Source of the DNA: an uncultured Acidobacteriota bacterium
GTDB taxonomy: Bacteria; Acidobacteriota; Thermoanaerobaculia; UBA5066
Assembly (NCBI GenBank): GCA_963779415.1
Contig: CAVZYA010000001.1
Location: 352,001 to 416,000, forward strand
DNA: 64,000 nt
Direction: 5' to 3'
The notes beneath the pieces are model-generated. The model had not been told where the DNA came from. It was given only the letters and a program-made list of their open reading frames with translations, and searched no databases. Below, in pieces: positions 14,409 through 56,654 of this stretch (its first letter is position 1; the number at the start of each line of letters is the position of its first letter). Made by a program: the position numbers and the translations under genes.

Positions 14409-15262
14409 CTCGGGGATCCCGCGGCGGCGCCCGCCGCGAAGGCGAGGAGGATCCCGGCCGCGACGGCGGCGTTGAGGGAGTCGACCCGTCCCGAGAGGGG
14501 AATCGTCACCCGTCGGGAGAGGCGGGACTCGAGGGCCGGCGAGATCCCGCGCCCCTCGGAGCCGAGAACGAGAACCAGCGGTCGAAGTCCCGAAAGCGAT
14601 GAAGGGGGATCACCGCCTCGCGTTTCGGCTCCTGCCAGCGTCGCCCCGACTCCATCGGCCCATGCGGCGGCTTCATCGGGAGTCACCCCTGTCGCAATCG
14701 GTATCCGGAGGGCGGAGAGGGCCGAGGCCCGGACCGCTTTCGGCGAGAAGGGAGAGGCGCAGTCGGGCGTCAGGAGGACGCCGGCGACTCCGAAAGCCTC
14801 CGCCGACCTGAGGATCGCCCCGACGTTGGCCGGGTCCTGAATGCCATCGAGGAGGACGAAGAGCGAAGACGAAAAGGGAGACGAAGACGGGGGCGAAGAG
14901 GAAGAAGGAAAGGAAGAAGGGAGGGGGGCCGACGGGGGATGCTTCGAAGCAAAGAGCTCCGGAAGCGATCGGCGGGGCGGAGCGGCCAGCGCGACGACTC
15001 CCCGAGCGGAGGGGAGATCCGAGAGTTTCGAGAGGACCTTCGAAGTGACAAAGTAAAGCGAGGCCCCGCGCTCGGCCGCATTCCGAATTGCTGCGTCCTC
15101 GCCGGCGCCCTCTTCACCTTCTAAGAAGATTTCTCTTGGGACGATCCCCGCCGCGAGGGCCTCGCCTACGGCACGCGCCCCCTCGAGAAGCAGGCTCTCG
15201 CCGCTCTCGACGGCCCGGAGGGCCGCCTGAATCCGCGGGTTCGACGTCGCGGTGATCCGCAT
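14369..15262 (-). CDS. TrmH/SpoU family RNA methyltransferase with a Ser/Pro-rich insertion
   Basis: LDGIQDPANVGAILRSA, LGSEGRG, DSLNAAVA. Confidence 0.9.
   Translation of the reverse strand: MRITATSNPRIQAALRAVESGESLLLEGARAVGEALAAGIVPREIFLEGEEGAGEDAAIRNAAERGASLYFVTSKVLSKLSDLPSARGVVALAAPPRRSLPELFASKHPPSAPLPSSFPSSSSPPSSSPFSSSLFVLLDGIQDPANVGAILRSAEAFGVAGVLLTPDCASPFSPKAVRASALSALRIPIATGVTPDEAAAWADGVGATLAGAETRGGDPPSSLSGLRPLVLVLGSEGRGISPALESRLSRRVTIPLSGRVDSLNAAVAAGILLAFAAGAAAGSPSQSGSPKTSAEKV
15111..15130 (-). repeat. Intragenic AT-rich motif copy (ATCTTCTTAGAAGGTGAAGA)
   Basis: Near-identical to copies at 24073, 41816, 56261. Confidence 0.7.
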
Positions 15263-15311
15263 CGGCAGCCCCGAGCGTAGCCCACCTTCCTCACCGTGCT
15301 AAAACGTCGCG

Positions 15312-16529
15312 GTGAAATCGGAGACGGCGGCGGCAGCGACGGCGGCGGGGGCGGCTGCAGCCAAGGCCGTGCCCCTCTCGGCTCTCTGGACCTTCCCTTC
15401 GATCCTTTTCTCCGCGTTCATCATCGGCTGGGCGGCCGAGGCGGCGCAGTTCCTCGTCTCCCAGGGATTGGCCCTCGCGATCCTCGCGTGGCTCCAGACG
15501 CTTCCCGAGTTCTCCGTGGAAGCCGTCATCGCGTGGCAGGCCGGGAAGGATCCGGCGAAGGTCCATCTCGCGATCGCGAACTTCACCGGTTCCATCCGGC
15601 TTCTCGTCGGCCTCGGTTGGCCGCTCGTCTACTTCGTGGCGGCTTTTTTCGCGGCCCGGACGGGAAAGCGGAAGACCTGGGTGGAGATCCGGCTCGAGGA
15701 CGAGCACGCGGTGCAGGTGATGAGTCTCTTCCCGGTGCTTCTCTGGTTCACGGTGATCTGGTGGAAGGGGACGCTCGGCCTCCTGGATGCCGCGGTCCTC
15801 GTATTTCTCTACGTCGTTTACCTCTGGCTTTTGTCGCGCGTCCCGCCCCGGGAAGAGGACGAGGAAGAGATCGACGATCTCCCGCGCGTCTCCCGGTGGG
15901 CGCTCTCTTTCGGGCCGGGAAAGCGGGCGATTGCCATCGCCGCCCTCTTTCTCGCGGGAGGCGCCATCCTTTATTTCGCGGCGGAAGCCTTCGTCGGGTC
16001 GATGCTCGCGCTCGCCGTCTCGATGGGGGTGGCCCCGTTCTTCTTTGTCCAGTGGGTCGCCCCGTTCCTCTCGGAGTTCCCCGAGAAGCTCTCGGCCTTC
16101 AACTGGGCGCGGCAGATCTCGAAGGCCCCGATGGCGCTGATGAATCTCCTTTCGTCGACGATCAACCAGTGGTCCGTCCTCTCCGGCCTGATTCCCGTCA
16201 TCTACTCGATATCGAGGGGCGAGCCGTCGGCCATCGTCTTCGACACCCACCAGAGGGCGGAGATCCTCCTGACGATTCTCCAGAGCGCTCTCGGATTTCT
16301 CCTGCTCCTGAACCTCAAGTTAGAGGCCTACGAGGCCGGAATTCTCTTCGTCTTCTGGCTGGTGCAGTTTCTTTTCCCCTCGACGCGCGATGCGATGGTC
16401 TGGGTCTACGCCGGCTGGTGCGGGATCGAGCTGATCCGGATCGTCACGGGCGGCCGGAAACCCGTCGCCGTCGAGGCGGCGTGGCGCGTCGTCCGCCAGC
16501 GCGGGGGAGTTCCCGCGGGAGTGGAATGA
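15312..16529 (+). CDS. Ca2+/cation antiporter (CaCA) family membrane protein
   Basis: Alpha-repeat-like TLPEF..ANFTG and SEFPEK..SSTINQ; about 11 TM helices. Confidence 0.7.
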   Translation: MKSETAAAATAAGAAAAKAVPLSALWTFPSILFSAFIIGWAAEAAQFLVSQGLALAILAWLQTLPEFSVEAVIAWQAGKDPAKVHLAIANFTGSIRLLVGLGWPLVYFVAAFFAARTGKRKTWVEIRLEDEHAVQVMSLFPVLLWFTVIWWKGTLGLLDAAVLVFLYVVYLWLLSRVPPREEDEEEIDDLPRVSRWALSFGPGKRAIAIAALFLAGGAILYFAAEAFVGSMLALAVSMGVAPFFFVQWVAPFLSEFPEKLSAFNWARQISKAPMALMNLLSSTINQWSVLSGLIPVIYSISRGEPSAIVFDTHQRAEILLTILQSALGFLLLLNLKLEAYEAGILFVFWLVQFLFPSTRDAMVWVYAGWCGIELIRIVTGGRKPVAVEAAWRVVRQRGGVPAGVE

Positions 16530-16588
16530 CGGATGGATGATGCGTTCGCGTCAGGCCCGGCGAAGGAACCCTCCTCTAGACTCGTGAC

Positions 16589-17813
16589 ATGAGCATCAGC
16601 CATCTCGCAAGGTCCATCGCTGAGTCGCCGACGCTCCGCCTGAACGAGGAGGCGCGGCTTCTTCGGGAGAGGGGCGAGCCCGTCATCCACCTCGGAATCG
16701 GCGAGCCGAAGAACAAAGCCCCGATCAGCGCGATCCTCGGCGCCGCGGGGAAGCTCTTCGCCGGCGACGTGAAATACACGCCGACGGACGGCCTCCCGTC
16801 GCTCAAGAAGGCGATCCTCCGGTACACGGAGGAGAACTACGACCGGGTGATCGCCCCGGAGAACGTCATCGTCTCCGAGGGGGCGAAGCAGTCGCTCTTC
16901 AACGTCCTCTACTCGATCCTGAACCCGCAGGACGAGGTGATCGTCCTCGCCCCGTACTGGGTCAGCTATCCCGAGATCGTGAAGATGGTGCAGGGGGTGC
17001 CGGTCGTCGTGACGCCGGAGGACGGCAGCTTCGTCCCGCAGTTCTCCGAGATCGAACGGGCGGTCTCTTCCTCCACGAGGGCGATCCTCCTGAACAGCCC
17101 GAACAACCCTTCGGGCGCCGTCTTCCCCGAGGCGCTGGTCTCGAAGCTCGTGGAGTTCTGCGAGAGGAAGGGGATCTGGCTGATCACCGACGACATCTAC
17201 CACAAGCTCGTCTTCGACGGGAAGGTCGCCGTCCCCGCGTGGCGATACACGCCGAAGGACGTCGAGACGTCGAAAGTGATCGTCGTCAACGGCGTCTCGA
17301 AGATCTACGGGATGACCGGATTCCGGATCGGCTGGGTGGTCGCGAACCGGGAGCTGGTCCGGATCATGACGAACGTGCAGGCGCAGACGACCTCTTGCGT
17401 GGCAACGGTCTCGCAGGCGGCGGCGGAGGGGGCGCTGACGGGCCTCCAGAGCTACGTCGAGATCTCTCCGCCTCACGCATCCAGAACAACCGCGACGTCC
17501 TGCTGCAGGAGATCCGGACCTTCACGGGACGTGAAGACGGTCGAAGCCCGAGGGAACGTTCTACGCGCTCCCCGACTTCCGCGCCTACGCGAATGGGATC
17601 CGTCGCGATGTCGGAGCTTCTTCTCAAGAAGGCGATGGTCGTCACGGTGCCGGGCAAGCGAATTCGGGATGGAAGGGCACCTCCGCCTCTCGTTCTCGGG
17701 CTCGGTGAAGGAGATCACCGGAGGGGATCGCCCGGATGAAGTGGGCGCTCGATCCCTCGTCCCCGAACGAGATCTACATCGGGGAACGGAAGCTCGTGAG
17801 GGACTGGCTGTGA
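16589..17813 (+). CDS. PLP-dependent class I/II aminotransferase (aspartate aminotransferase); frameshifted after ~17460
   Basis: GEP, NSPNNPSG, DDIY, SKIYGMTGFRIG; C-terminus continues across frames to TGA at 17811-17813. Confidence 0.8.
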
Positions 17814-19460
17814 ACAACATCCTCGACATCAGGACCCCGGCCGAAGGGCGAGGCCCAGGCGCGGAAGGCCGACTACGGCCTCGCCTACCTCGGCCTCTCG
17901 AACCTCCGGAAGGTCTACTGGAACCTTCCGACCGAGGCCCTCTACGAGGAGATCATCTTCCGGCGCGAAGGGCGGATCGCCCGTCGGGCGGCCCGGTCGT
18001 CGTCGACACGGGGAAGCACACGGCCCGCGCCGCGAACGACAAGTTCGTCGTCCGCGAGGAGGACTCGGAGGGGCACATCTGGTGGGGCGTCGTACAACCG
18101 CCCGCTCGCCCCGGAGAAGTTCGACGAGCTCTTCGGCCGGCTGCAGGGGTACCTGCAGGGGCGCGACCTCTTCGTCCAGGACTGCTTCGGCGGTGCCGAC
18201 CCCGACTACCGGCTCCCGGTCCGGATCGTCACCGAGCAGGCGTGGCATCGCCTCTTCGCCCGGAACATGTTCCTGAAGCCCCGGACCGCACGACGAATAC
18301 CGGCGCCACGTCCCGGAGTTCACGGTCCTCTGCGTCCCCGGCTTCAAGGCCTTCCCGCCCGTCGACCAGACACCCTCGGAGACCTTCATCGTCCTCAACT
18401 TCGCCCGCCGGATCTGCCTCATCGGGAACACCGGCTACGCGGGGGAGGTCAAGAAGTCGGTCTTCACGATCCTGAACTACCTCCTCCCGCTCGAGGGGGT
18501 CATGACGATGCACTGCTCGGCGAACGTCGGGAAGGACGGGGCCACCGCGCTCTTCTTCGGCCTTTCCGGGACCGGGAAGACGACGCTCTCGGCGGACCCG
18601 AACCGGGGCCTGATCGGCGACGACGAGGCGGGGTGGAGCGACAAGGGGATCTTCAACTTCGAGGACGGCTGCTACGCGAAGGTCATCGCTCTTTCCGCCG
18701 CGGCCGAGCCGCAGATCTGGGCGACGACGCGCCGCTTCGGGACGATCCTCGAGAACGTGATGTTCGATCCGGTCACGAGGCTGATCGACCTCGACGACGA
18801 CCGCCGGACGCGAAAACACGCGCGCTTCGTACCCTCTCGACTTCATCGAGAACGCCGTCCGAGAGCCGGATGGGCGGGCATCCCCGAAGAACATCATCTT
18901 CCTGACGTGCGACGCCTCCGGGGTGATGCCGCCGATCGCGAAGCTGTCGCCGGACCAGGCGCTCTACCACTTCATCTCGGGCTACACGTCGAAGATCGCC
19001 GGGACCGAGATCGGCCTCGGCAAGGAGCCCGAGATCACCTTCAGCGCCTGCTTCGGCGGGCCGTTCATGGTCCACACCCCGTACACCTACGCGAAGCTCC
19101 TCCGCGGAGAAGATCGAACGGCACGGCGTCGACTGCTGGCTGGTGAACACCGGATGGGTCGGCGGGCCGTACGGCATCGGAAAGCGGATCAGCATCCGGT
19201 ATACGCGGGACCTTCTGAACGCGGCGCTGGACGGAAAGCTGAAGGACGTGGAATACCAGGCCGACCCGGTTTTCGGCTTCGCGGTCCCGAAGAGCTGTCC
19301 GGGGGTCCCCGACCACGTCCTGAAGCCGGCCGACGCGTGGCACGACAAGGCCGAGTACATGAAGAAATACAGGCAGCTCGCCGCGCGCTTCATCGAGAAC
19401 TTCCGGAAGTTCGAGGGAGAGACGCCGGCCGAAATCGTGGCGGCGGGTCCGAAGATCTGA
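17810..19460 (+). CDS. pckA: Phosphoenolpyruvate carboxykinase (ATP); multiple frameshifts
   Basis: [56 protein letters not shown] in successive frames. Confidence 0.88.
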
Positions 19461-20665
19461 TGGGGTTTCGCTTCTCCCGCCGTGCCTCTTCCGTCGCCCC
19501 CTCGGCCACGCTCGAGGTCCTGCAGGCCGCGGCGTCGCTCCGCGAGCGGGGCGTCGACGTCGTCGATCTCGGCCCCGGCGAGCCCGACTTCCACACGCCG
19601 GAGTTCGTCAAGGAAGCGGCCATCGCGGCGATCCGCGCGAACTTTACGAGGTACACGGACGTCTTCGGCATTCCCGAGCTTCGCTTCGCGGTCTCGGACC
19701 ACTACCGCAGGGCGTGGGGGAGCCCGTGGGGCCCGCGGAACGTTCTCGTCACCGCCGGTGGGAAGCAGGCCCTCCACACGGCGTGTCTCGCCCTCTTCGA
19801 GGAGGGGGACGACGTGCTGGTTCCCCGTCCCTACTGGGTCTCGTTCCCCGAGATGGTGAAGCTGGCCGGGGCGAGGCCCGTCTTCGTCCCGACGAGCCCG
19901 GAGAACGGCCACCGGCTCCGGGCCTCCGACGTCGAGCGGAGCGCGACCGACGCGACGCGGGGCGTCATCCTCAACTCACCGAACAACCCGACGGGCGCCG
20001 TCATGGAGGCGGGGGAGATCGAGAAGATCGTCCGCCTCGCTGCGGACCGGGGGTGGGTCGTTATCTCGGACGAGTGCTACGACCGGCTCGTCTACGAGGG
20101 AAAGCACTTTTCGGCGGCCGCGCTTGGCGATCGGTACCCGAAGACGGTCCTCGTCTGCGGGTCGCTCTCGAAGACGTTCGCCCTGACGGGCTGGCGGATC
20201 GGCTTCGCCCTCGGCCACGAGGAGCTGGTCGCGATGATGGGGCGGCTCGTCTCGCACGCCACGACGAACGTCTGCTCGATCACCCAGCGGGCTGCGCTCG
20301 CGGCCCTCACCAGCCCGGACGAGGCGGAGGCCGCCACGCACGCGATGTTCCGCGAGTACGCGAGGCGGCGGGACTTCCTGATCCCGGCTCTCGCCTCCCT
20401 CCCCGGAGTCCGCTGCGCCCCCCCGGGGGGCGCCCTCTACGCCTTCCCCGACGTCTCCGCGCACTTCGGAAAGCGGCTCGGAGGGATCGACCTGACCGGC
20501 TCGGCCCCCTTCGCGAGGGCGCTTCTCGATACCGTCGCCGTCGCCGTCACCCCCGGCATCGCCTTCGGCGACGACCGCGGCGTCAGGCTCTCCTTCGCCA
20601 CCTCGATGGAGCGGCTCGAGGAAGGGATCGCCCGGATCCGGAAGGCGCTGGGGGAGATCGGTTGA
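19460..20665 (+). CDS. PLP-dependent aspartate aminotransferase (second paralog)
   Basis: [29 protein letters not shown]; ATG overlaps pckA stop. Confidence 0.9.
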
Positions 20666-20698
20666 ACGACCGATCGGCTCTTCAGCCCGAAAACACCC

Positions 20699-21118
20699 TC
20701 AGGCCACGCCGACGACGGGAATCCCGTGTGCCCGGGCGGCGCGGGCAAGGGCAGCGTCGTGCGTGGCGAAGGTGAGCGGCTCGCGAACGGCTTCCTGGTA
20801 GAGGAGTGCGGTCGCCAGGTGGATGGCGTCCAGCGTTCCGAGAACGGTCGGAAGCGGCTGTGCCGCCCGCTCGAGGATCTCGCGGCTCGGATCGACGAGC
20901 GTCAGGCTGTCGAGGAGGGCGATGAGACACTCCCGACGACGGGCGGTCTCCTCGTCGCTCAAGCTCTCCTCGAGTCTCAGGCGGTCCAGAGTTCGAAGGC
21001 ATTCGACCTCCGCAAGGCCGCTCGAAACGCCCCGGCGGATCCGTCTCCAGCTCCGAAGTCGCCGCGGCTGGTCCAGAGCGACCCGCAGGAGCACGGACGA
21101 ATCAATGTAGACGATCAA
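20699..21118 (-). CDS. vapC: VapC PIN-domain toxin
   Basis: IVYIDSS, LDAIHLATA, FATHD; TTG start overlaps antitoxin stop. Confidence 0.88.
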   Translation of the reverse strand: MIVYIDSSVLLRVALDQPRRLRSWRRIRRGVSSGLAEVECLRTLDRLRLEESLSDEETARRRECLIALLDSLTLVDPSREILERAAQPLPTVLGTLDAIHLATALLYQEAVREPLTFATHDAALARAARAHGIPVVGVA

Positions 21119-21378
21119 CGGGCGCTCTGCCGCTCCTCGAGCAGGAGCTCCACGACGTCTCGCCGGGTCTTGAGCCGGCGCGGAAGGCGGACGCGCCCGG
21201 GCACCGGCGCTCCGGCTTTCGGCGGCCGAAGGCTCAGACTCGTCGCCGTCGGGCCGACGGGCACCAGCCGGGCGACAGGCTCTGTGCGGTTCAGGACCGT
21301 CACGCTTCCGCCCCTTCGGGCGATACGGACATAGTGCGAAAGGCGCGCCTTGAGTGCCGCGATCGAAACCGTGCTCAT
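21115..21378 (-). CDS. Phd/YefM family antitoxin
   Basis: VSIAALKARLSHYV...G..VTV...PVARLVP; directly upstream of vapC. Confidence 0.88.
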   Translation of the reverse strand: MSTVSIAALKARLSHYVRIARRGGSVTVLNRTEPVARLVPVGPTATSLSLRPPKAGAPVPGRVRLPRRLKTRRDVVELLLEERQSAR

Positions 21379-21405
21379 GACCAGATGATAGCCCTTTCTG
21401 GTCAT
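21377..21405. promoter_or_regulatory. Inverted-repeat operator over the TA promoter
   Basis: ATGACCAGA-N11-TCTGGTCAT perfect 9-bp arms overlapping the minus-strand TATCAT -10 box and the start codon. Confidence 0.7.
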
Positions 21406-21536
21406 CCACGGAATGGCGTGGCCAGCGAAAGAGCGATGCGTCCGGATCTGCTTCCCCACTTGTATGGAGCGACTCGAGGAAGGGATCGCCACGGGTCCGG
21501 AAGGAGCTTTCCGAAATGCGGTAGGCCTGCGTCAAC

Positions 21537-24225
21537 TCACTTCGCCCCCGGGACCCGCCGCTTCACCTCCTCGAACCAATTCAGGACGACTTTGACGTGC
21601 GCCGGGCCCGATTCGGCGGGGTCTGGTTTGATCATGAGGAAGCGCGTCCCGTCGGGCGCGACGTCGTAGCTCCCGCGAAAACGCCCCTCGAAGAGCGTCC
21701 GCGGGCGCCCGGGACGAAACGTCGGCTTCGTCTCGACGTCTGCGGCCATCATCTTGTCCCCGTTCCGGTAGAAAAGTTCGCGGCCGCTCTTGGACCAGCG
21801 CGGCCCGTACCCCCCTTCGGTCGAGATCTGCCACCTGGGGCCCGGGAACGGCCGGACGAAGACCTCCCCGTGCCCCGACTCGTTCGAGAAGTACGCGACC
21901 CATCGGCCGTCGGGTGAAAACTGAGCGGCTCCTTCCATGAACTTTGTCTGGAAGAAGGGACGCGACGTTCTCTCACCGCTGAGCGGCAGAACGTAGATGT
22001 GCTGTTTGATGTCTAGGAGGCCGCGGGGGTCATGAAGTATTCCCGTGAAAATCACAACACTTCCATCGGGTGACACAGAGGAAGGGAGTTCTTGCAGGTT
22101 GTTCTGGGTGCCCATTGTGGCAAGCTCGGGCGGGGTGCTCCCATCGGCGCTCAGCCAATGGACTTTTTCCGGGTAGAACGCCGACGTCGAAATGCCGAGG
22201 GCAATCCGTTTCCCTTCCGGCGCCCAGGCCGGACCCCGGAGAATCCCCTCTACCGGCGACCGCGTCAGTGTCCCCCGGGCGAGTTCTCCGATAAGCAGTG
22301 CCGTCGTTTCGGCTTCCTCGAAGACAATCGCTGCAATGCGCCCTCCGTCCGCCGAGAGGGCCACCTCCTTGTAGTCCCGGGGCGGAAAAGGAACCGTTTC
22401 CACCGTGCCTTTCCGGTCCACCCAGACCAAGCTTCGCTGCAATCGCCCTCGTGAGCGGTAGACAAGCGTCCCATGGGACGAGAGGGCCATTTGGGCCGAA
22501 TTCGTGAAGATGCGATTCGTAACGAGGTCGTCGAGCACCGGTACGGCGAGACCGGACACTTCGAGCCGCTTCAGACTGAACGGCACTGCTAGAAGAGAGC
22601 CGCTCCGTGTGAAGACAAGGTGGCCCGTCTGTAAGAACCGGGGATTCGCCGCGTTCTCCGCAACGGCCCTGCGCTCCCCCGTCCGGAGCGAGACAACGGC
22701 GGCGCGGGGTACCGCATTCGGGGCCACGCTTCCGATCTGGAAGAGGACATGTTCACCGTCCGGAAGGATCTCTGCGAACTCGTGTACTTCCGAGCTTGAG
22801 GCATCGACTTTAGTCAGCGCCTGGGATTCGCCGCCCGACGCCGGGATGCGGTAGAGACCCGACATGGCGCTGGGCGCGAAGACGATCGTTCCGTCCGCCC
22901 CCCAGCTTCCATGGCTACCGTAAGTCGGAGCGTCGCAGAGAATGATCGGCGAGCCGCCGGCGAGTGACACCTTCTTCAGCTTTCCTTCGGAAAAGAAGCC
23001 GACCCAGAGTCCGTCCGGAGAAAAGAAGGGGCTGACTCCGCCCTCGGACCCCGCGATCGACTTGATCTCCTCCCGGTCGAGCGAACGGACGAAAAGCCTG
23101 CTTCCGACGTAGACGAGGGTCTTCCCGTCGGGGGACAGAGCGAGCGAGTGGAAATCCGCAGAGAATCGAGGCGGGGCATCGATCGGAAAAGAGAGCGAAA
23201 GGCTGATGGGCGAAGCGAGAGGAGATCCAGATCGCAGAAACCGATTACCGAGGAGGAGACCAATCACGGCGGTGAGCGCGGCGACAGCCGCCAGCGCCCA
23301 GAAGGGGACCCTGCGGCGAAGACGCGGCACGCCAGCGAGAGAGACATCCGCCGTGCTGACCGCCTCCGAGAGGTGAACCCGGAGGTTCTGCAGCTCCTTC
23401 GCGAGGTCCTTGGTCGAGGAGTAACGCTCCTCCCTGTCCTTCGAGAGACATCGTTGGACGATCCAACTAACGAGCGCCGGGAGCTTCGGGTCGAGCTTTG
23501 ATAGCGGCTCGGGTTCCTCGCGGATGATGGCGACCATTGTCTCGGCCGCGGAGTCGCGGACGAACGGCCGCTTTCCCGTCAGCATCTCGTAAAGAACCGT
23601 TCCGAGCGAGAACTGGTCGCTCCGGAAGTCGACAGTCTCCCCTCGTGCCTGCTCCGGCGACATGTAGGCCACCGTCCCGAGGACGACCCCTTTCTCGCTC
23701 ACGGCTGCCAGCGTGGGAGACCGGGTGTCGGAGGGGTCGTGGCGCGTGACGTCGTGCCGGGCGAGGCCGAAGTCGAGGAGCTTGGCGTGGCCGTCCTTCG
23801 TCAGGAAGATGTTCTCGGGCTTGACGTCCCGGTGGACGATTCCTTTCCCGTGCGCCGCCGCCAGCCCTTCCGCTACCTTCAGCCCGACGTCGAGGGCCTT
23901 CTTGAGCGGCAGCGGCCCCTTGCCCAGCGTCTCGCGCAGCGTCCCGCCTTCGAGAAGCTCCTGAACTAGGAGGAGCCGACCGGAGATTTCTTCGAATGAG
24001 TAGATCGCGGCGATGTTCGGGTGGTTCAGCGCCGCCAGCGCGCGAGCCTCTCTCTCGAAGCGCGCCTTCCCGTCTTCACTTTCTAAGAAATCTCCCGGCA
24101 GGACCTTCATCGCCACTTCCCGGCCGAGCCTCGTGTCCTTCGCCCGGTAAACCTCGCCCATTCCGCCCGCGCCGAGGGGCGAGGATCTCGTATGGGCCCA
24201 GCTTGGTGCCAACGGCCAGAGTCAT
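21537..24225 (-). CDS. Ser/Thr protein kinase with TM helix and TolB/WD40-like beta-propeller; frameshift near N-terminus
   Basis: MTLAVGTKLGPYEI (ATG 24225) then LGAGGMGEVY, HRDVKPEN, DFG, YMSPE; repeated SPDG propeller blades. Confidence 0.88.
24073..24091 (-). repeat. Intragenic AT-rich motif copy (ATTTCTTAGAAAGTGAAGA)
   Basis: Near-identical to copies at 15111, 41816, 56261. Confidence 0.7.
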
Positions 24226-24231
24226 TGCACA

Positions 24232-24300
24232 CCGCAGCAGGGGGTCCGGGGGACGCCCGTAGGCGAGTCCCCGGGAAGCAGCCGAGGCGGGTCCCTGCGG
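24232..24300. repeat. GC-rich multi-stem palindromic element between the two kinase genes
   Basis: CCGCAG..CTGCGG outer arms enclosing CCGGGGGAC-GCC-CGTA-GGC-GA-GTCCCCGG hairpin. Confidence 0.45.
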
Positions 24301-24323
24301 CGATCATGCCGGTCAGTGACTCC

Positions 24324-27624: not shown

Positions 27625-27628
27625 GTCG

Positions 27629-40864: not shown

Positions 40865-41739
40865 GCCGCCCCGGGCCGGTCCGCGGCGAGCCGGCGCTGC
40901 CGCCCTGGATCCGCGAAAAGAAGCTGCGCCTCTCGGGCCTCCACGAGATGAAGTCGCGGATGCGGCGGGGAAAGCTCTCGACCGTCTGCGAGGAGGCACG
41001 TTGCCCGAACCGGACGGAGTGCTTCGAGCGGAAGACCGCCACCTTCCTCCTCTGCGGAGACGTCTGCACCCGCTCCTGCGGCTTCTGTCACATCGTGTCG
41101 GGACGGCCCCGCCCCCTCGATCCGGAGGAGCCGCGGGAGGTCGTCCACGCCGTGGGCGAGATGGGGCTCTCCCACGTCGTCCTCACCTCGGTCGACCGCG
41201 ACGACCTTCCGGACGGCGGAGCCGCTCACTGGGCCGCCGTGGTCCGCGCTTTGAAGGAGGACGACGCGCGGCGGACCGTGGAGGTCCTGACCCCCGATTT
41301 CGGCGGCGCGGAGCCATCGATCGACCTCGTCGCGGACGCCGGTCCCGACGTCTACAACCACAACGTCGAGACGGTGCCGCGGCTCTACCCGACCGTTCGG
41401 CCGAAGTCCGGGTTCGAAAGGTCGGTCGGGCTCCTCGCGCGCGTGAAGAAGCGTCACCCCTCCATGACGACGAAGTCGGGGTTCATGCTCGGCCTCGGCG
41501 AGAAGGACGACGAGGTCCTGGAGGTGCTGCGTGCCCTCCGGGGCGCGGGGGTGGAGGTCGTCACGGTGGGGCAGTACCTGCGCCCCTCGGCGTGGAACCT
41601 GCCGGTCGTCGAGTACGCGACCCCCGAACGGTTTGCCTCGCTTCAGGAAGCCGGCGAAGAGCTCGGATTCCGCCACGTCTTCGCGGGGCCGTTTGTCCGA
41701 TCGAGCTATCGGGCCGAAGAATTTCTTGGAAGCGAATAG
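40861..41739 (+). CDS. lipA: Lipoyl synthase
   Basis: CEEARCPNRTEC, CTRSCGFC, RSSY. Confidence 0.95.
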   Translation: MSRPGPVRGEPALPPWIREKKLRLSGLHEMKSRMRRGKLSTVCEEARCPNRTECFERKTATFLLCGDVCTRSCGFCHIVSGRPRPLDPEEPREVVHAVGEMGLSHVVLTSVDRDDLPDGGAAHWAAVVRALKEDDARRTVEVLTPDFGGAEPSIDLVADAGPDVYNHNVETVPRLYPTVRPKSGFERSVGLLARVKKRHPSMTTKSGFMLGLGEKDDEVLEVLRALRGAGVEVVTVGQYLRPSAWNLPVVEYATPERFASLQEAGEELGFRHVFAGPFVRSSYRAEEFLGSE

Positions 41740-41806
41740 GGAAATTTCTTAAAGGTGAATAGGGCGAAGGTGAAGCCGAAGCGCAACTCGCCGCGCGAGC
41801 CATCGC

Positions 41807-43390
41807 ATGCTGCCTCTATTACCTTCTAAGAAGATCCCCCGGGCTCTTTCGGCCTCTCTCTCGGGCCTTCTTCTGGCTCTCTGTTTCCCGAATGCCTCTC
41901 TTCTCCCGCTTCTTCCCGTCGCCCTGATCCCGCTGATGGCGGCGGTCGATGGCGTTCGCGGGCGCGACGCCGTTCTCTTCGGCTCGATCTTCGGCTTTGT
42001 CTTCTGGGTCACGGCGATTCCCTGGATCGCTTTCACGGTGAGCACATTCGGCGGCGTGGGACCCGTGATCGGCCTCCTGGCCCTCGCCATCACGGCCGGC
42101 ATCCTTGCCGTCCCGTTCGCCCTGATGACGTGGGCGGTTTCTCTCGTGTCGCCACGGTCCGGGACAGGGTTCGTCTTGACATGGGGCGCGGCGTGGGTGG
42201 CTCAGGAGGGATTCCGGACGTACGTCTACATCTTCGGCGGCTTCCCGTGGATCCTTCTCGGAAGCGCGATGGCCGACCATCCCGTTCTCGTCCAGAGCGC
42301 CGCCCTCGGAGGGATCGAGCTGACGTCCTTTCTCGTCGCGGCCCTGAATGCGGCGCTCTATGTCGCCCTGACGCGCCCGGACAGGACGAAGCGGCTCCTC
42401 TGGCTGGCGGGAGCCTGCGCGGCGTCCCTCGCCGTCGTCGTCGCCGGGGGCGCCCGCCTCGGAGAAACCCCCGACGCCTCGACGATCCTCCGCGTCGGGA
42501 TCGTCCAGTCGAACGTCGAGCAGCAGGTCCGCTGGGACGAAGGGACGTCGAATCGTCAGTGGAAGGGGCTGGAGGCCCAGACGCGACGGCTCGTGGCGCA
42601 GGACCGGCCGGACGTCGTCCTCTGGCCCGAGAGCGCGTCCCCCTATTCCTGGCCGTGGGACGCGGGCTACCGGAAAGAGGTGACGGCCCTCTGCCGAGAG
42701 CTTCGGATCGCAATCCTGCTGAACACCGCCTGGTCGGACGAGCCGTGGCGGCCGGACGCGCCCTACTACAACGCCGCTCTCCTCGTGACGGGGGACGGCC
42801 CGGTCCTTCCGCCTTACCGGAAGCAGCGCCTCGTTCCGTTCGGAGAGTACGTCCCGCTCGCGTCGATCCTCCGGTTCATCGGGCCGATCAGCCGGGCCGT
42901 CCCCGGCTCCTTCACCCCCTCCCCGTCGTCGGACCTGATCCGGCTCGGCCGCGTCCGCCTCGGCGGCGCCATTTGCTACGAGGTGGTCTATCCGTGGATC
43001 GCCCGCGCGCACGTCCGGGCCGGGGCCGACGTTCTTTTCACCCTTACGAACGACGCCTGGTACGGCCGGATGGGGGCGCAGCGGCAGCACTGGCAGGCCG
43101 CCGTGATGCGGGCCGTCGAGACCGGGCGCCCGCTCGTCCGCGCCGCGATCACCGGGATCAGCGGCGCCGTTGCGCCGGACGGGACCGTTCTCGACTCTCT
43201 CGGCCCGGGCCTGAGAGGGTCGCTCGTCCTGCCGCTCCCGCGGCCGAAGGCCGGGGTCCCGGCCGTCGCGCTCGGGGAGAGCGTCCTTCTGGTTTGCGCC
43301 GGCGGCCTTGGGGCCGCTATCCTCCGCCGCCGGGTCTCCCCGCCCCGGGAGCCCCGCGCGGCGCGGGCGCAAGACTCGCGCGCCGCTTGA
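41807..43390 (+). CDS. lnt: Apolipoprotein N-acyltransferase
   Basis: GFPW, WPES, KQRLVPFGEY, ICYE, TNDAWY. Confidence 0.95.
   Translation: MLPLLPSKKIPRALSASLSGLLLALCFPNASLLPLLPVALIPLMAAVDGVRGRDAVLFGSIFGFVFWVTAIPWIAFTVSTFGGVGPVIGLLALAITAGILAVPFALMTWAVSLVSPRSGTGFVLTWGAAWVAQEGFRTYVYIFGGFPWILLGSAMADHPVLVQSAALGGIELTSFLVAALNAALYVALTRPDRTKRLLWLAGACAASLAVVVAGGARLGETPDASTILRVGIVQSNVEQQVRWDEGTSNRQWKGLEAQTRRLVAQDRPDVVLWPESASPYSWPWDAGYRKEVTALCRELRIAILLNTAWSDEPWRPDAPYYNAALLVTGDGPVLPPYRKQRLVPFGEYVPLASILRFIGPISRAVPGSFTPSPSSDLIRLGRVRLGGAICYEVVYPWIARAHVRAGADVLFTLTNDAWYGRMGAQRQHWQAAVMRAVETGRPLVRAAITGISGAVAPDGTVLDSLGPGLRGSLVLPLPRPKAGVPAVALGESVLLVCAGGLGAAILRRRVSPPREPRAARAQDSRAA
41816..41835 (-). repeat. Intragenic AT-rich motif copy (ATCTTCTTAGAAGGTAATAG)
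   Basis: Near-identical to other copies; faces plus-strand variants at 41721-41739 and 41744-41762. Confidence 0.7.
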
Positions 43391-47824: not shown

Positions 47825-47836
47825 CTTTTCCGGCCG

Positions 47837-49539: not shown

Positions 49540-49568
49540 GGGTCGATTCTAGTCGGCCCTCGAGAACG

Positions 49569-51272: not shown

Positions 51273-51312
51273 GACGGCCCGGGACGTTACCACCCTTCGC
51301 TATCATCCGAGC

Positions 51313-51987
51313 ATGCCGCGAAAGCGTCCGAAGATCGTCGTCGCCGTGACCGCGGCCGTCTTCGCCGCCGCCTGTCGTCGCGAGGCCACGCCCGCGGCCG
51401 AGCCGGCTCCGGTGCCGCGCGCGCCCGAGGCGTCGCGCCCCACGTACCGGGCCCCCGCGGACGGAAGGGTGACGAAGGCGCAGGTCGAGGCGTACCTCGG
51501 CGTCCTGGAGAAGGTGAAGCTCGACCGGAGCCGGAAGCCCTCGGGGAGCATCCTCGTCCCGGGCGACCCGCTCAACATGGAGTCGAGTGATGTCGCGGCG
51601 GCGCGCGAGAGAGGCTGGAACGTCGCGGAGTACCTCTGGGTGCGCGAGCGCGTCCTCGAGGCGGAGGCCGTCGGCCTCGGCGACCGGCTGATGGCCTCGC
51701 ATCTCGCCATGCTGGAAAGGACTCTCGCCGAGCTCCGGACACGCCGGGCCTCCGCGCCGGACGAGGGCTCCAGGAAGCTCCTCGGCGAGCAGATCGCGAA
51801 TTTCGAGACCGAGGCGAACCGGACGCGCCGGGAGTCGCGCGAACGGGATCCGGAAAACGTCCGCGCGAACCTGAAGACGATCGAGCCGCTGCTCGCTCGG
51901 CTCGAGGCGGCGGGAGACGTCCTCGATCAGCCCCTCCCGCGGGGGGCGGCGCCGGTACGCAGCCCCACGCCGGCTCCGTCCCGATGA
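51313..51987 (+). CDS. Hypothetical lipoprotein
   Basis: Lipobox FAAAC after basic/hydrophobic leader; coiled-coil C-terminus. Confidence 0.65.
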   Translation: MPRKRPKIVVAVTAAVFAAACRREATPAAEPAPVPRAPEASRPTYRAPADGRVTKAQVEAYLGVLEKVKLDRSRKPSGSILVPGDPLNMESSDVAAARERGWNVAEYLWVRERVLEAEAVGLGDRLMASHLAMLERTLAELRTRRASAPDEGSRKLLGEQIANFETEANRTRRESRERDPENVRANLKTIEPLLARLEAAGDVLDQPLPRGAAPVRSPTPAPSR

Positions 51988-52024
51988 TTCCCCTCTGACG
52001 CCTCCGCCCCTTCCGGGCCGGCTC

Positions 52025-54112
52025 CTACCAGACGAGTGCGCCGAGGAGGCTGCTCCGATCGTCGGTCCAGAGGGAGACCTTCCGCCCGTGGTCCGTGAGC
52101 GGGACGGCGGCTCCGGCGATCCCCGGACGCGCGAGGACGTCGGCCCGGCGGCTCATCAGGACCCAGACGCTTCGCCGGTTGGCATGGCCGGGGGGATCCG
52201 CGTCGACTTCGACGGCGGCAAGGCCGGAGTTCCGCGCGGCGGCGAGGAGGACGGGCTGGAGGCGGACGTGTCGGTTCGAGACGTGGAAGGCGAGGATCCC
52301 GTCGTCGTCGCGAAGATGTGCGAGGTAGACGGCCATAGCCTCGGCGGTGAGGAGATGGACCGGCACGGCGTCGCTCGAGAAGGCATCAAGGGCGAGGATG
52401 TCGAATCGTCCGGGCTCCCCACGCGCAAGCTCGCGCTCGAGTGAGAGGCGCGCGTCTCCTTCGACCACGTCGACCCTCCCCGGGGCGTCGGCAAGGAAGG
52501 AGAACGTCGGGTCGACACCCCTCGAGAGCGCCACGACGTCGGGGTTGATCTCGTAGAACCGGATCGCATCCGCGGCCGTGGTGTAGGCCGCGAGCGTCCC
52601 GACGCCGAGCCCGACCACGCCGATCCGGAGAGGCTCGCCGGCCGCCCGGCGCGGGTGGCTCCGGATCGCCCGGCCGACGCCGCTCTCTTCGCCGTAATAC
52701 GCCGTCGGCTGTCGGCGCTTCCCGGGCTCCAGGTACTGGAAGCCGTGCTGTATCCGGCCGTGCGTGAGACTCCGGAGGTGCCACGATGGGTCGCCAGGCA
52801 GCTCCTCCCGGACGCGGAGGACGCCGTAGAAGCTCCGCGAGGTCATGACGGCGCTCTCGAGTCCCTGCTTTATCGGAAGGACGAAGGCCAGAGCGAGGGC
52901 GAGCCAGAGAGCTCCGGCCACGGCGAGAACGGCGAGACTCCGCGCGACCTGCGTCTTCGGGTCTCGCGCCAGGACGACGACCAGAAGCGCGCCGCAGAGA
53001 AGCAGCCCCAGAGGGTATTCCCAGTACCCCTTGAAGAGGAGCGGCGCGAGGACCCCGACGAAGAGGCCTCCGAGCGCGCCCCCCGCCGCGACCGTCAGAT
53101 AGAAGCCGGTGAGGCGGGACGGGTCCGGGCGGAGGCGGTAGAGCTCGCCGTGGCAGACGAGGCATCCCGAGAAGAGCGTCACGGCGAACGCGGCGACCTG
53201 CAACGGCGTCCGAAGGCGGGCGGCCTCCCGGAGAACGACCAGGAGAGGGATGAGGGAGAGGACGAAGAGGAAGGAAGCGATCGGACGCCACGGAACGCGG
53301 GGAAGGTCGAAACAGAGGACGAACGAGAGAAGGTAGAGGGCGAGCGGGAGAACCCAGAGGAAGGGAACCACCGCGACCTCCTGGCACATCTGGTTCGTCG
53401 TCGCCATCAGGAGAATCGAGCCGCAGGCCGAAAGAGCGAGCCAGAGGAAGCGACGGCTCGGCGGCGGCGGATCTTCTTCTTTCACGGCTTCGAGGGGCGG
53501 CGCCGAAGAGTCCCGGGCCTGACGAGACGCCGTGATCGAGAGGGCCGCTGCCGCGACGAGGAAGAGAACCGACCAGGCCCAGTCCTGGGCGCGGAGGCTC
53601 AGCGCGGGCTCGATCACGAATGGGTAGGCGAGGAGGGCGAGAAGCGACCCGAGGTTGGAAAGCGCATAGAGCCGCCAGACGCGGTCCGGCGCCGGGAGCC
53701 GCGCGGCCCACGACTGGAGGAGAGGCCCGGTCGCTGCGAGAAGGAAATAGGGAAGGCCGACGCTCACGGCGAGGAGAGCGAGGATCCGGAGCGACGGGGC
53801 GCCGCTTCCGACCGGCTCGAACCGGCGCGGAGGGGCGAGCGGGGTCCCGAAAGAGAGGGCGAAGAGAGCGATCTGGAGGAGCGCGAGGAGAAGGAGCGCC
53901 GTGTGGATGCGCCGCTGCGCTCGGGGAGAAAGGCGGGCGAGGCGGTCGGCGTAGAGGTAACCGGCGAAGAGAAGGGCCTGGAAGAAGAGGAGGCAGGTGG
54001 TCCAGACCGCCGGGGTGCCGCCGAACCAGGGGAGAAGATGGCGACCGACGATCGGCTGGAGCTGGAACAGGAGAAACGCCGAAAGGAAGATCGCGAGGGC
54101 GTAAAGAGCCAT
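52025..54112 (-). CDS. Fused membrane domain / spermidine synthase-like SAM-binding protein
   Basis: FLLFQLQP, YALSNLGS, HG..HG.Q, VGLGVGT, EINP, GDAR, DAFSSD. Confidence 0.88.
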   Translation of the reverse strand: MALYALAIFLSAFLLFQLQPIVGRHLLPWFGGTPAVWTTCLLFFQALLFAGYLYADRLARLSPRAQRRIHTALLLLALLQIALFALSFGTPLAPPRRFEPVGSGAPSLRILALLAVSVGLPYFLLAATGPLLQSWAARLPAPDRVWRLYALSNLGSLLALLAYPFVIEPALSLRAQDWAWSVLFLVAAAALSITASRQARDSSAPPLEAVKEEDPPPPSRRFLWLALSACGSILLMATTNQMCQEVAVVPFLWVLPLALYLLSFVLCFDLPRVPWRPIASFLFVLSLIPLLVVLREAARLRTPLQVAAFAVTLFSGCLVCHGELYRLRPDPSRLTGFYLTVAAGGALGGLFVGVLAPLLFKGYWEYPLGLLLCGALLVVVLARDPKTQVARSLAVLAVAGALWLALALAFVLPIKQGLESAVMTSRSFYGVLRVREELPGDPSWHLRSLTHGRIQHGFQYLEPGKRRQPTAYYGEESGVGRAIRSHPRRAAGEPLRIGVVGLGVGTLAAYTTAADAIRFYEINPDVVALSRGVDPTFSFLADAPGRVDVVEGDARLSLERELARGEPGRFDILALDAFSSDAVPVHLLTAEAMAVYLAHLRDDDGILAFHVSNRHVRLQPVLLAAARNSGLAAVEVDADPPGHANRRSVWVLMSRRADVLARPGIAGAAVPLTDHGRKVSLWTDDRSSLLGALVW

Positions 54113-54155
54113 CGGCGAGACTACGATACAGGCTGGAGCCGTGAGGGAGGATCCG

Positions 54156-54658
54156 ATGAGGATGATCGACCCCCTGCTGATGGAGTTCGACCGCGAGGCG
54201 GGAACGACGCGGAAGCTCCTGGAGCGATGCCCCGACGGAAAGCTGGGGTGGCAGCCACACGCGAAGTCGAGGAGCCTCGGGAAGCTGGCCCAGCACCTCG
54301 CGACGATCCCGGCCCTCGTCGGAATGTCGGTTCTGAAGAGTGGCCTCGACCTCGCGGCCGCTCCTCCCGTCCCCCCGTCCCCGCGACGACCGCCGAGATC
54401 GTGAAGAGCTTCGAGGCGGCCTGCGCCGCAGCGAAGGGGGCGATGGCAAGGCTGGACGACACGATGGCGATGGAAACCTGGACGTTCTCGTATGGTCCGA
54501 AGACGCTCCTGGCGATGCCGCGGATCGCGTTTCTTCGGACGATCCTCCTCAACCACTCGTACCATCACCGTGGACAGCTCTCGGTCTACCTCCGGCTCCT
54601 CGACGTTCCCGTCCCGTCCGTCTACGGGCCGAGCGCGGACGAGAACCCGTTCGGCTGA
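54156..54658 (+). CDS. DinB family protein; frameshift near 54370-54390
   Basis: GGGAGG RBS; WQPHAKSRSLG.LA.H; HSYHHRGQL.VYLR, YGPSADE. Confidence 0.85.
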
Positions 54659-54727
54659 AGTCAGCGAGCCGGGGAAGAAAGGGGTGGCGGCATTTCTCGG
54701 AAGACGCTCAGCAACGTTCACGGAGCG

Positions 54728-55492
54728 CTGATCCCGGAGCCTCTCGACCCGGCCCTTCCGCGCCGGATCGAGAGCTGGGAAAGCACCGCTCTCGGCGAGC
54801 CCGCCTCGATCGCGTTCTACGGGATCTCGGGGCGGGCGGTCCTTCTCTTTCCTTCCGACACGGGAGATCATCTCGAGGCCGAGGACTCCGGGCTCGTCAA
54901 GGCGATCGAGCCGGTTCTCCAAACCGGGCGCCTCCGCGCCGTCGCCGTCGACACGATCAATCGCCGAGCCTGGGCGAACACCGACATCGAGATCGCCGAG
55001 CAGGCGCGCCAGCAGGCGCTCTATGCAACGTTCCTCGAGGAGGAGGTCGTGCCCCGAGTCCGTGCCGGACCGGGGGAAGCCGAAGTCCGGATCGCCGTGG
55101 CGGGAGCCAGCTTCGGCGCCTTCCACGCCGCGAACGCCTTCTTCCGGCGCCCTGACCTCTTCGACGCTCTCATCGCGATGAGCGGCTTTTTCGACCTCGC
55201 GCCGAACTTTCTCCGGGGCTACACCGACGACAACTGCTACTACAACAATCCCGCGTGGTACCTGCCGCGCCTCGAGGGGAAATACCTCGACCTCCTGCGC
55301 GACACGACGGCGATCTACCTCGTCACGGGGCGCGGCCCGTACGAGATGCCGGACGCCTCCTTCGGCCTCTCGTCCATCCTGAGCTCGAAGGGAATTCCCC
55401 ACACCCTCGACATCTGGGGGACGGACGTGACCCACGAGCCGGTCTGGTGGCGGAAGATGCTCTCCCACGCCGTCGAGAAGCTGGGGTGGTAG
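54728..55492 (+). CDS. Putative esterase (alpha/beta hydrolase); start uncertain, possibly CTG
   Basis: GASFG nucleophile, MSGFFD, YYNNP, THE..WW; frame open and homologous-looking well upstream of GTG 55049. Confidence 0.75.
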   Translation: MIPEPLDPALPRRIESWESTALGEPASIAFYGISGRAVLLFPSDTGDHLEAEDSGLVKAIEPVLQTGRLRAVAVDTINRRAWANTDIEIAEQARQQALYATFLEEEVVPRVRAGPGEAEVRIAVAGASFGAFHAANAFFRRPDLFDALIAMSGFFDLAPNFLRGYTDDNCYYNNPAWYLPRLEGKYLDLLRDTTAIYLVTGRGPYEMPDASFGLSSILSSKGIPHTLDIWGTDVTHEPVWWRKMLSHAVEKLGW

Positions 55493-55505
55493 GGACGGCT
55501 CTCCG

Positions 55506-56654
55506 TCAGCCCCGCCAGGAGTCGTGGTACGCCGGGTCTTCGAGGGCGAGAGCTTCGGGGGTGAGCCTCAGCGGGAGGAAGGTGTCCATCATGACCGCCA
55601 GCTCGTCGGTCGAGCGGCCGCCGATCGACTTCTCGTAGGCCCCCGGGTGCGGGCCGTGCGGGACGCCCGCGGGGTGGAGCGAAACGGCCTTCGGCCCGAT
55701 GCCGCGGCGGCTCGTGAAGTTTCCCCGGACGTAGTAGATGACCTCGTCGCAGTCGACGGAGGTGTGCGGGTAGGGACAGGGGATCGCGTCGGGATGCGTG
55801 TCGGTGACGCGCGGGACGAAAGAACAGATCAGGGCGCCACGCCCGGCGAACGTGGAGTGGACCGTCGGCGGGAGGTGGACGAGCCCCGTCCGCGGCTGAT
55901 AGGAGAGGATCGGGAAGGCGAAGGGCCAGACGGTTCCGTCCCAGCCGACGACGTCGAAGGGGGAGGCGGCGGGGAAGCGCTCGACGAACGAGTCGTCCTT
56001 CTTCACGACGATCCGCCTCGGGCCGGGGCGCGCCCCGCGGAACTCCGGCCTCACGAAGTCGCGGTGCGTGTAAGGCGCGTCCATCCGGAGCTGGCCGACC
56101 GGGTTGCGGAACTCCCGCGGAATGTGCAGGCCGCCGCGAAGCTCGAAGAGGATCCCTTCGAAGGGGGAATGAATCCGGAATCGACGGATGACGCCCCTCG
56201 GGACGAGGACGTAATCGCCGGGGCGGATCGGGAGATCGCCGAAAGGGGACTCGAGGGTTCCCTCACCTTCTAAGAAGAAGAACAATTCGTCTCCGTCCCC
56301 GTTGCAGAAGCCGTCCTCGGTCGTCGCTTCCTTCGGGAGCCGGAAGAGCGAAACCGCGACGTCGTCGTTCGTCAGGAGGGGCGTGAAGCCCTCGGGAGCC
56401 TTCCCGCCGAGGAGGAGCCGCCGGCGGAGCGGCCGCCGGGGCCCTTCGCGGGCCGGCTTGATGTCGAAGCGGCCGGCCTCGCAGGGTCCGATCCGGTCGT
56501 CGGTCATCGGCGGCCCCTCGTGGTAGAGGATCGAGAACTCGCCGTCGAACCCCTTCCGCGTGAGGCACTCCTCGAAGCGGAGCTTTCCCTCCGGGGAGCG
56601 GAAGGCGGTGTGGGGCTTGGCGGGAAGCTGGCCCGCCGCCATCCGGTCGATCAA
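55506..56654 (-). CDS. hmgA: Homogentisate 1,2-dioxygenase
   Basis: NGDGDEL, DVVGWDG, HLPPTVH, CSFVPR, LHP.G.PHGP; downstream of hppD. Confidence 0.9.
   Translation of the reverse strand: MIDRMAAGQLPAKPHTAFRSPEGKLRFEECLTRKGFDGEFSILYHEGPPMTDDRIGPCEAGRFDIKPAREGPRRPLRRRLLLGGKAPEGFTPLLTNDDVAVSLFRLPKEATTEDGFCNGDGDELFFFLEGEGTLESPFGDLPIRPGDYVLVPRGVIRRFRIHSPFEGILFELRGGLHIPREFRNPVGQLRMDAPYTHRDFVRPEFRGARPGPRRIVVKKDDSFVERFPAASPFDVVGWDGTVWPFAFPILSYQPRTGLVHLPPTVHSTFAGRGALICSFVPRVTDTHPDAIPCPYPHTSVDCDEVIYYVRGNFTSRRGIGPKAVSLHPAGVPHGPHPGAYEKSIGGRSTDELAVMMDTFLPLRLTPEALALEDPAYHDSWRG
56261..56280 (-). repeat. Intragenic AT-rich motif copy (CTTCTTCTTAGAAGGTGAGG)
   Basis: Near-identical to copies at 15111, 24073, 41816. 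Confidence 0.7.

Follow-up and report, generated by a model that had tools for sequence, protein, structure and literature searches.

The stretch of DNA analyzed here, referred to as the window, comprises 64,000 nucleotides (C1:352001-416000) of the genome of an uncultured Acidobacteriota bacterium of the class Thermoanaerobaculia; this genome (G000) consists of three contigs, 4.36 Mb in total, with 68% GC. An earlier note on the window had described an AT-rich motif of about 19 bp in four unrelated genes and proposed that it is a protein-binding or chromosome-architecture site. All four copies are present, and the 19-20-mers quoted for them match letter for letter. They contain the 12-mer TTCTTAGAARGT at 15116-15127, 24078-24089, 41821-41832, and 56265-56276, always on the minus strand. 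By their domains, the host genes encode a TrmH-family methyltransferase, a protein kinase (Pkinase), Lnt (LNT_N/CN_hydrolase), and a homogentisate-dioxygenase-like protein (HgmA_N/cupin), in keeping with the TrmH, kinase, lnt, and hmgA-type assignments made before. The unit to which these copies belong is a convergent doublet, composed of two near-palindromic arms of ~25 bp that stand head-to-head with their purine-rich ends outside.

The motif is genuine and lies beyond chance. In 100 dinucleotide shuffles of the window, TTCTTAGAARGT was not matched once, while the 9-mer core, with four matches in the window, had a shuffle mean of 0.05. Genome-wide, there are 45 copies of the 9-mer core (25 on the plus and 20 on the minus strand) and 21 of the 12-mer (10 and 11, respectively), against ~3 and ~0.07 expected from base composition alone. 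For a codon-preserving null, 20 synonymous-codon shuffles were made of the genes predicted by a crude codon-usage gene caller trained in-house (3,714 genes, 86% coding); the counts based on this caller are approximate because it missed the TrmH gene. The 9-mer had shuffle means of 0.25 in sense and 0.75 in antisense against 14 and 17 observed, and the 12-mer was absent from the shuffles in both directions against five and six observed. The comparison with a codon-shuffled null that the earlier note had asked for thus gives counts far above expectation; a frequency no higher than that expectation, on which the note would have withdrawn the motif, is not what is seen, as the shuffles hold about one 9-mer and no 12-mer. 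Chance and codon usage are ruled out as the source of the motif by both kinds of shuffle. As for a concentration of the rare TTA codon in the motif, TTC-TTA-GAA is the commonest single context of the 188 in-frame TTA codons, but it accounts for just nine of them (5%).

The arm consensus was drawn from 45 copies of G000 together with 206 copies from other genomes. Its core of ~25 bp reads G-A-T-(T/C)-TTCTTAGAA-(G/A)G(T/G)(G/A)AA(G/T)AGGGG, and the whole arm can be written in short as (GAAGAN)n-GAT(Y)-TTCTTAGAA-GGTGAAGAGGGG. Within the arm, AYCTTCTWAGAAGRT forms a near-palindrome. The 20-30 nt on the 5' side of the core are rich in purines, and in high-copy genomes, this flank is visibly built of hexamer repeats such as GAAGAC and GGATTC. 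At three loci of the genus g4 (L064:1897-2100, L040:7371-7520, and L093:4790), the outer flanks of the arms become hexamer microsatellites (AATCCG, GAAGAC), which suggests slippage seeded by the GAAGAT end of the arm. A 27-nt weight matrix found 132 sites scoring at least 16 in G000 compared with eight in a reversed-sequence control, and 53 strong sites (score at least 25) compared with two. The strong copies have a density of ~1 per 80 kb, or ~1 per 33 kb with the weak copies included. In weakened arms, the core most commonly takes the form TTCTTCGAA or TTCTTGGAA.

The pairing of arms was seen both in G000 and in a set of 115 loci (887 kb) from other genomes. Among exact cores within 400 bp of each other at these 115 loci, 37 pairs are convergent (plus followed by minus), seven are on the same strand, and none is divergent. 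The weight matrix returned 79 convergent pairs at 60-300 bp and no divergent pair below 300 bp, while beyond 500 bp, the two kinds are equally many. For 22 of the 53 strong arms in G000, there is a convergent partner scoring at least 12 at 55-200 bp, compared with 0/53 in the divergent control and with 0 and 1 in two same-strand controls; the median best partner score is 5.3 for convergent partners and -20 for the divergent control. The spacing (d) ranges from 64 to ~180 bp with a mode of 76-77 bp, even though the sequences of the centers are unrelated. Positions -6 to -1 behave differently from the rest of the arm in the 107 doublets of G000 and loci L011-L125, as the likeness there is lower in real pairs (0.382) than with partners shuffled (0.482, sd 0.022). 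A 1-nt length variant that alternates within pairs, located between GAT and the core, may account for this, but ungapped comparison may also have produced the difference as an artefact.

Each of the four window copies is the minus arm of a doublet and has a weaker plus partner. The first strong arm (15107..15133, minus strand, core at 15119-15127, matrix score 42.6) belongs to the TrmH-family gene, which translates it in sense as EIFLEGEE. Its decayed partner on the plus strand (14900..14960) has the core-like sequence TGCTTCGAA near 14940 (d ~179, score -6.5) and a purine-rich outer flank of 30 nt. On the gene strand, the pyrimidine-rich flank of this decayed arm (window 14900-14960) encodes ~24 Ser/Pro-rich residues (SKHPPSAPLPSSFPSSSSPPSSSPFSSS) inserted in the TrmH-family protein, and the motif-free genera have no such insert. 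The second arm (24069..24095, minus, core at 24081-24089, score 35.4) lies in the Ser/Thr kinase gene, where its sense reading is DFLESED. Its weak plus partner (23982..24008, with TTCTTCGAA at 23988, d=93, score 14.7) is read antisense as the native kinase sequence IYSFEEIS, and the center of this doublet scores as native coding sequence. Paralogous Ser/Thr kinases of ~900 aa (an array at C1:943-977 kb, and window 21537-24161) have the same motif-like pair at d=93 near their N-terminus, and the recurrence of the pair in the paralogues means that it is older than the duplications or was renewed in each copy.

The third arm (41812..41838, minus, core at 41824-41832, score 34.2) covers lnt codons 4-10 in antisense as LLPSKKI, so that the Lnt protein starts with MLPLLPSKKI; a thioredoxin-like secreted protein has a start of the same MLPLLPSKKI type. 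Two overlapping partner copies stand opposite on the plus strand (41717..41765): TTCTTGGAA at 41723-41731 (d=101) and TTCTTAAAG at ~41746-41754 (d ~80). The TTCTTGGAA partner covers the final codons and the stop of the upstream lipoyl-synthase gene lipA (AEEFLGSE*); at this lipA-lnt junction, one arm thus makes up the end of lipA with its stop, while the facing arm makes up the start of lnt. The fourth arm (56256..56282, minus, core at 56268-56276, score 22.6), read in sense as FFLEGEG in the homogentisate-dioxygenase-like gene, has an outer flank that matches the consensus poorly. Its decayed plus partner (56148..56175) contains GAGGATCCCTTCGAAGGGGGAATGA at ~56154 (d ~114), a match to the consensus made by eye and below the scan threshold. 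The single orientation reported earlier is true of the four strong copies of the window, where the better-kept arm happens to be the minus arm in all four pairs, and it does not extend to the genome, in which the strands are balanced.

According to the crude gene caller, 36 of the 53 strong arms in G000 are inside predicted genes, in sense and antisense alike, and the other 17 (32%) are non-coding, compared with 14% of the genome. The arms in genes stand in ordinary housekeeping genes, among them alr (alanine racemase), RNase R, hisD (histidinol dehydrogenase), Sua5, Fmt, and a copper ATPase; for alr, RNase R, hisD, sua5, fmt, the kinase, and lnt, the identity is confirmed by matches in Pfam and PDB. 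In sense, the arm encodes the peptide (E/D)(I/L)FLEGE(E) and in antisense S(S/L)PSKK(I/S), with the pyrimidine-rich flank beyond the antisense arm encoding stretches rich in Ser, Pro, Leu, and Phe. Several intergenic doublets stand at gene ends, and an arm in the GGTGAATAG form provides stop codons in all three frames. Since the copies occur in sense, in antisense (in lnt, as had been noted), and between genes, a protein-level motif is ruled out, and the conservation at the DNA level that the earlier note had proposed is upheld.

The position of the copies on the chromosome follows no pattern. They are spread over all three contigs, are not clustered near an origin or terminus, and form strings of orientation that do not follow the turning points of the cumulative GC skew. 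parS, matS, nucleoid-occlusion sites, and FtsK-orienting polar sequences (KOPS) are short and often intragenic; their conservation is at the DNA level, and proteins recognize them. The motif is likewise short, often in genes, and conserved as DNA, but it has no polarity and no clustering by origin or terminus, and it consists of paired asymmetric arms in 4-90 copies per genome with presence/absence variation. Therefore, the KOPS-like reading of the earlier note is removed by the lack of a common orientation genome-wide and of any relation to GC skew, and the parS/matS-like reading is not borne out either; what stands of that interpretation is a conserved DNA-level feature well above its null, and what falls is the polar or positional chromosome site. 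The cumulative GC skew itself has its peak at C1:420 kb, 4 kb past the right end of the window, and its bottom at C2:440 kb; the replication terminus may be adjacent to the window, and all three contigs may belong to a single chromosome.

The motif family is abundant in only two genera among the 107 sampled. In collections with one genome per species, the exact 19-mer was found in at least 115 stretches, 113 of which are labelled Thermoanaerobaculia or Acidobacteriota; metagenome bins are the sole source of these organisms' genomes. When 31 relatives were searched with a 21-mer at up to three mismatches, the eight genomes of the genus of G000 (g1) had 4-30 copies, G010 of another genus had 50, and the other 22 genomes had 0-1. 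A survey of 301 genomes of the class (107 genera) at up to two mismatches gave rich genomes only in g1 (2/2) and g4 (16/16, with 20-88 copies), while three further genomes had a single match each. Dozens of exact 21-mers are present in each g4 genome. The copy number is low (4-5) in the near-complete genomes G003 (99% complete) and G007 (94%). A narrow literature search, with supplements outside its scope, returned TTCTTAGAAGG only in papers that, judged by their listing, are unrelated and no description of a palindromic or repetitive element or a transposable element of the miniature inverted-repeat kind (MITE) from Thermoanaerobaculia.

Conservation in related genomes, another check proposed earlier, gave a positive result, as the core is kept at orthologous sites beyond the identity of the flanks. 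From seven same-genus genomes, 38 sites were chosen by an exact 12-mer, and 28 of them could be aligned across the motif to G000. The exact 12-mer is present in G000 at 15 of these 28 sites (11 distinct), as read by eye and with an alignment window offset of ~3 nt for minus-strand cases, compared with ~0.9 expected from a mean flank identity of 75%. At the TrmH site, GAGATCTTC and GAAGGTGAAGA are kept in five species around a middle codon that is TTA, CTG, TTG, TTC, or CTC, and genera without the motif have TVFHVP-like residues there. The lnt arm is exact in two species, and two others encode the same peptide with GC-rich codons. In alr, the SPSKK arm is shared with the second motif-bearing genus (G010) at 67% protein identity.

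Turnover is seen as well. A doublet of 160 bp lies exactly between the stop and the start of two genes in G002 and G010, and the same genes overlap in G000. The doublet C2:154829/154906 (d=77), which contains the best-scoring arm of the genome, is specific to G000 and adds 16 nt. It lies in an Asp-Al_Ex (YidE/YbjL-type) transporter gene (C2:154326-155000; L006:527-1200), which has a frame change and a stop in the arm; this stop codon truncates the frame, and the rest of the gene continues in another frame. As four same-genus genomes are without that doublet, the gene has probably been split or inactivated recently. Within single g4 genomes, certain doublets from separate loci have 75-80% identity over 126-175 bp, with the center included and nothing beyond it.

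The most cautious conclusion is a recognition sequence at the level of DNA, whose convergent pairing is obligate and whose range is limited to two genera. Beyond this, the explanation that we tentatively prefer, at somewhat less than an even chance, is a lineage-specific repeat family similar to repetitive extragenic palindromic (REP) sequences, bacterial interspersed mosaic elements (BIMEs), and REP doublets forming hairpins (REPINs), read and propagated by a putative enzyme. It draws on the genus restriction, the range of copy numbers, the presence/absence variation, the whole-doublet paralogues, the breakage of a gene, and the many perfect 21-mers. Each arm would be the recognition site of one putative trans-acting DNA-binding enzyme of the transposase or recombinase type, which would bind two arms in a fixed head-to-head geometry and copy or maintain them, and the family would be a selfish or domesticated repeat of the REP/BIME/REPIN type. 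Recognition of the arms by a protein is inferred here, as is their upkeep by copying and not by a benefit to the host. The arms may survive in genes because two of the three frames per strand are open and encode tolerable peptides, namely, the acidic FLEGE(E) or SPSKK with hydrophobic residues, and their decay would chiefly affect the costly TTA codon, which changes into TTC or TTG.

Several results weigh against a propagated repeat of this kind. None of the candidate mobilizing enzymes, i.e., REP-associated tyrosine transposases (RAYTs; Y1_Tnp), IS110, and RVT_1 reverse transcriptases, tracks the motif, and no candidate for a binding protein was obtained from them. The RAYT-like genes of G000 were rejected as mobilizers, as they are flanked by a different repeat of their own, with inverted copies of 22-45 nt beginning GGGTCAGGTC, and do not co-occur with the motif; a RAYT homologue is present in 22/31 relatives and was not found in the copy-rich G010. 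IS110 was rejected as a mobilizer or motif-targeting element with one adjacency and a scattered presence in 16/31 relatives without co-occurrence. Writing templated by a reverse transcriptase was rejected with no RVT_1 found in the eight g1 genomes or G010. There is no target-site duplication at the sole filled/empty site, i.e., the 160-bp doublet of G002 and G010 compared with G000. In the weight-matrix scan, convergent pairs of arms 0.5-6 kb apart are no commoner than divergent pairs, and with no excess over the divergent control at 0.7-4 kb, no autonomous element with arm-like ends is seen. The arms of one doublet are not specially matched either: in 107 doublets, their identity compared with that of shuffled partners was 0.321/0.303, 0.515/0.527, and 0.322/0.322. 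As arms resemble each other no more within a doublet than between doublets, hairpin complementarity is not what is kept, and quasi-palindrome correction or a freshly copied hairpin was rejected as a source of the arms on the same ground.

The remaining results against it concern how arms come to stand in genes, and these also favor the strongest rival, a set of host-functional paired sites. Here, a genus-restricted chromosomal protein (nucleoid-associated, topoisomerase-like, or a polar roadblock) would bind arms ~76 bp apart, and mutation would create the sites in place wherever the coding sequence allows, with purifying selection maintaining them. Compared with motif-free genera of the same family, the arms overwrite native residues with little change in length: in alr, IRVEG has become (L)FLEG with one additional residue at the first arm and PPAWPAGL has become SSPSKKSL with three to four at the second, while in TrmH, TVFHVP has become EIFLEG at arm 1. 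These alignments indicate that such arms arose by substitution plus one to four codons and not by clean insertion. The centers of alr and TrmH align with motif-free genera, and in 11 of 13 in-gene doublet combinations, the best coding score of the center is in the frame of the host gene; the exceptions, with a foreign-looking center, are RNase R, which has ~20 extra residues across both arms compared with solved homologues, and C2:567884. Since the centers are native sequence, most in-gene doublets were not inserted as a block. The sequence common to non-paralogous copies within G000 is limited to 19-28 bp. The partner arm of alr is at residue 158 in G000 (d=176) and at residue 190 in G010 (d=101), and this shift between two genera with the pairing kept looks like selection for having a partner.

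Host sites would also accommodate the spacing mode of 76-77 bp around unrelated centers, the conservation of the core beyond its flanks, and the lack of complementarity between arms beyond the consensus. On the other side, 4-5 copies in G003 and G007 compared with ~90 in g4 would be odd for an essential set of sites, a fresh doublet breaks the Asp-Al_Ex gene, whole-doublet paralogues exist, the dozens of perfect 21-mers are more uniform than binding-site sets usually are, and no candidate protein was identified. On our assessment, host-functional pairs are a real possibility, although less likely than the propagated repeat.

The placement of arms at ~77 bp around untouched host DNA is explained neither by a repeat enzyme nor by host sites. 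It would follow if a putative enzyme complex installed or renewed only the ends, i.e., two convergent arms of ~25 bp at ~77 bp from each other around DNA left in place. Host DNA would then be bracketed and not interrupted, even in essential reading frames, and a partner would be re-created after one arm had decayed. This kind of writing is considered unlikely; if true, it would amount to a novel type of mobile genetic unit or to a drive by which binding sites propagate themselves.

Three further explanations are far less probable. DNA uptake sequences occur at ~1 per kb on both strands, in genes in tolerated frames, and as inverted pairs at gene ends. If the motif were favored by a DNA-uptake machinery and spread by transformation and recombination into tolerant frames, as the earlier note had allowed, this would suit its short length, its frequency far above expectation, the equal use of both strands, the copies in genes in tolerated frames and against codon bias, the conserved orthologous copies, the restriction to a lineage, and the limitation of the shared sequence to the motif. 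However, with ~53 strong or 132 scored copies to 4.36 Mb, the density is lower by one to two orders of magnitude, and strict convergent pairing at 64-180 bp around native sequence has no place in such a model, which makes the drive very improbable. Invertons, in which a global invertase would flip the 40-150-bp center between the arms and thereby recode or switch genes, are held in equally low regard. The inverted-repeat architecture with one consensus over many loci, the near-palindromic core similar to recombinase sites, and the RNase R center, which by our own reading of the sequence is open in both orientations, speak in their favor, but the centers of alr, TrmH, the kinase, and others are native, and their inversion would ruin the protein even though the pairs persist from species to species, and many centers are very short for synapsis. 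The sequencing runs listed for such DNA comprise no RNA run and only contig runs of small share. Four of them, compared with the RNase R gene, gave contigs of relatives, one of which skips 57 nt of the doublet center; no strand-change joint is present at the RNase R doublet in these contigs, which cannot show rare forms and for this reason say nothing on inversion.

Least probable of all is a transcribed long hairpin serving as a terminator, a 3' stabilizer, or a processing site, which would fit the purine-rich part in 5' and the pyrimidine-rich part in 3' on either strand, as in bidirectional terminators, and the intergenic doublets at gene ends with the three-frame stops of the GGTGAATAG form, but meets unremarkable folding energies of the doublets (z = -2.0 and -0.9), no Rfam family that reaches the gathering threshold, either in the window or at four doublet loci, no more sigma-70 promoters or intrinsic terminators at the arms than in shuffles, arms without complementarity beyond the consensus, and a majority of copies inside essential genes in both orientations.

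Among described systems, the motif is nearer to REP/REPIN-type repeats than to architecture sites because of its convergent pairs, its restriction to two genera, its range of copy numbers, and its presence/absence variation. REPINs are described as REP doublets in inverted orientation at preferred spacings, whose singlets resemble decayed doublets (PMC3116915). The likeness extends to a short, partly palindromic motif in inverted doublets at a preferred spacing, tens to hundreds of copies, and persistence at orthologous sites. In contrast to REPIN/REP-RAYT systems, which are extragenic, most arms here are intragenic and often bracket native coding sequence, the arms of a doublet are not specially complementary, and the RAYT-like genes carry another repeat. 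Rickettsia palindromic elements are described as units of ~150 bp inserted whole and in frame in unrelated housekeeping genes, to which they add a peptide (PMC10969869). Similar to these elements and to intragenic MITEs, residues are added within genes here (RNase R ~20, alr 3-4, and TrmH ~24). Unlike the Rickettsia elements, just ~25 bp per arm is common and the center is usually host sequence, and unlike MITEs, there is no target duplication at the one site and no parent insertion sequence was seen. The motif is thus of the dispersed palindromic-repeat kind with an unusual intragenic behavior, and not the polar architecture site first proposed.

Short repeats dispersed in bacterial genomes usually stand outside genes and are linked to a transposase that is known. 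The present family is written into essential genes with the rarest codon of the genome and is kept across two genera. Its arms supply parts of proteins, i.e., acidic loops, stop codons, and membrane-protein starts with Lys-Lys and hydrophobic residues (lnt), and are a clear case of repeat-driven protein change. If an enzyme stands behind the arms, its long, well-defined site and action at a fixed distance would be of interest for their mechanism and perhaps for practical use; should the pairs be required by the host, they would mark a further layer of chromosome organization.

Other mobile-element genes of these genomes were recorded alongside the motif. At least one RVT_1 gene is present in 7/10 other-genus genomes of the family (G008-G018 without G010), and none was found in G000-G007 or G010. 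A single-copy IS110-family transposase frame in G000 (C2:1589284-1590912; L010) extends ~160 codons beyond its conserved domains and crosses a motif copy ~15 codons past the usual end, and the element may therefore have inserted next to an arm. The four RAYT-like Y1-transposase genes, ~320 aa each, are located at C2:1647097-1648056, C1:1390518-1391471, C2:1273699-1274388, and C2:1690868-1691797 (L163-L166), and judged by their sequences and flanking GGGTCAGGTC repeats, they represent a separate REP/RAYT-type system in this genome.

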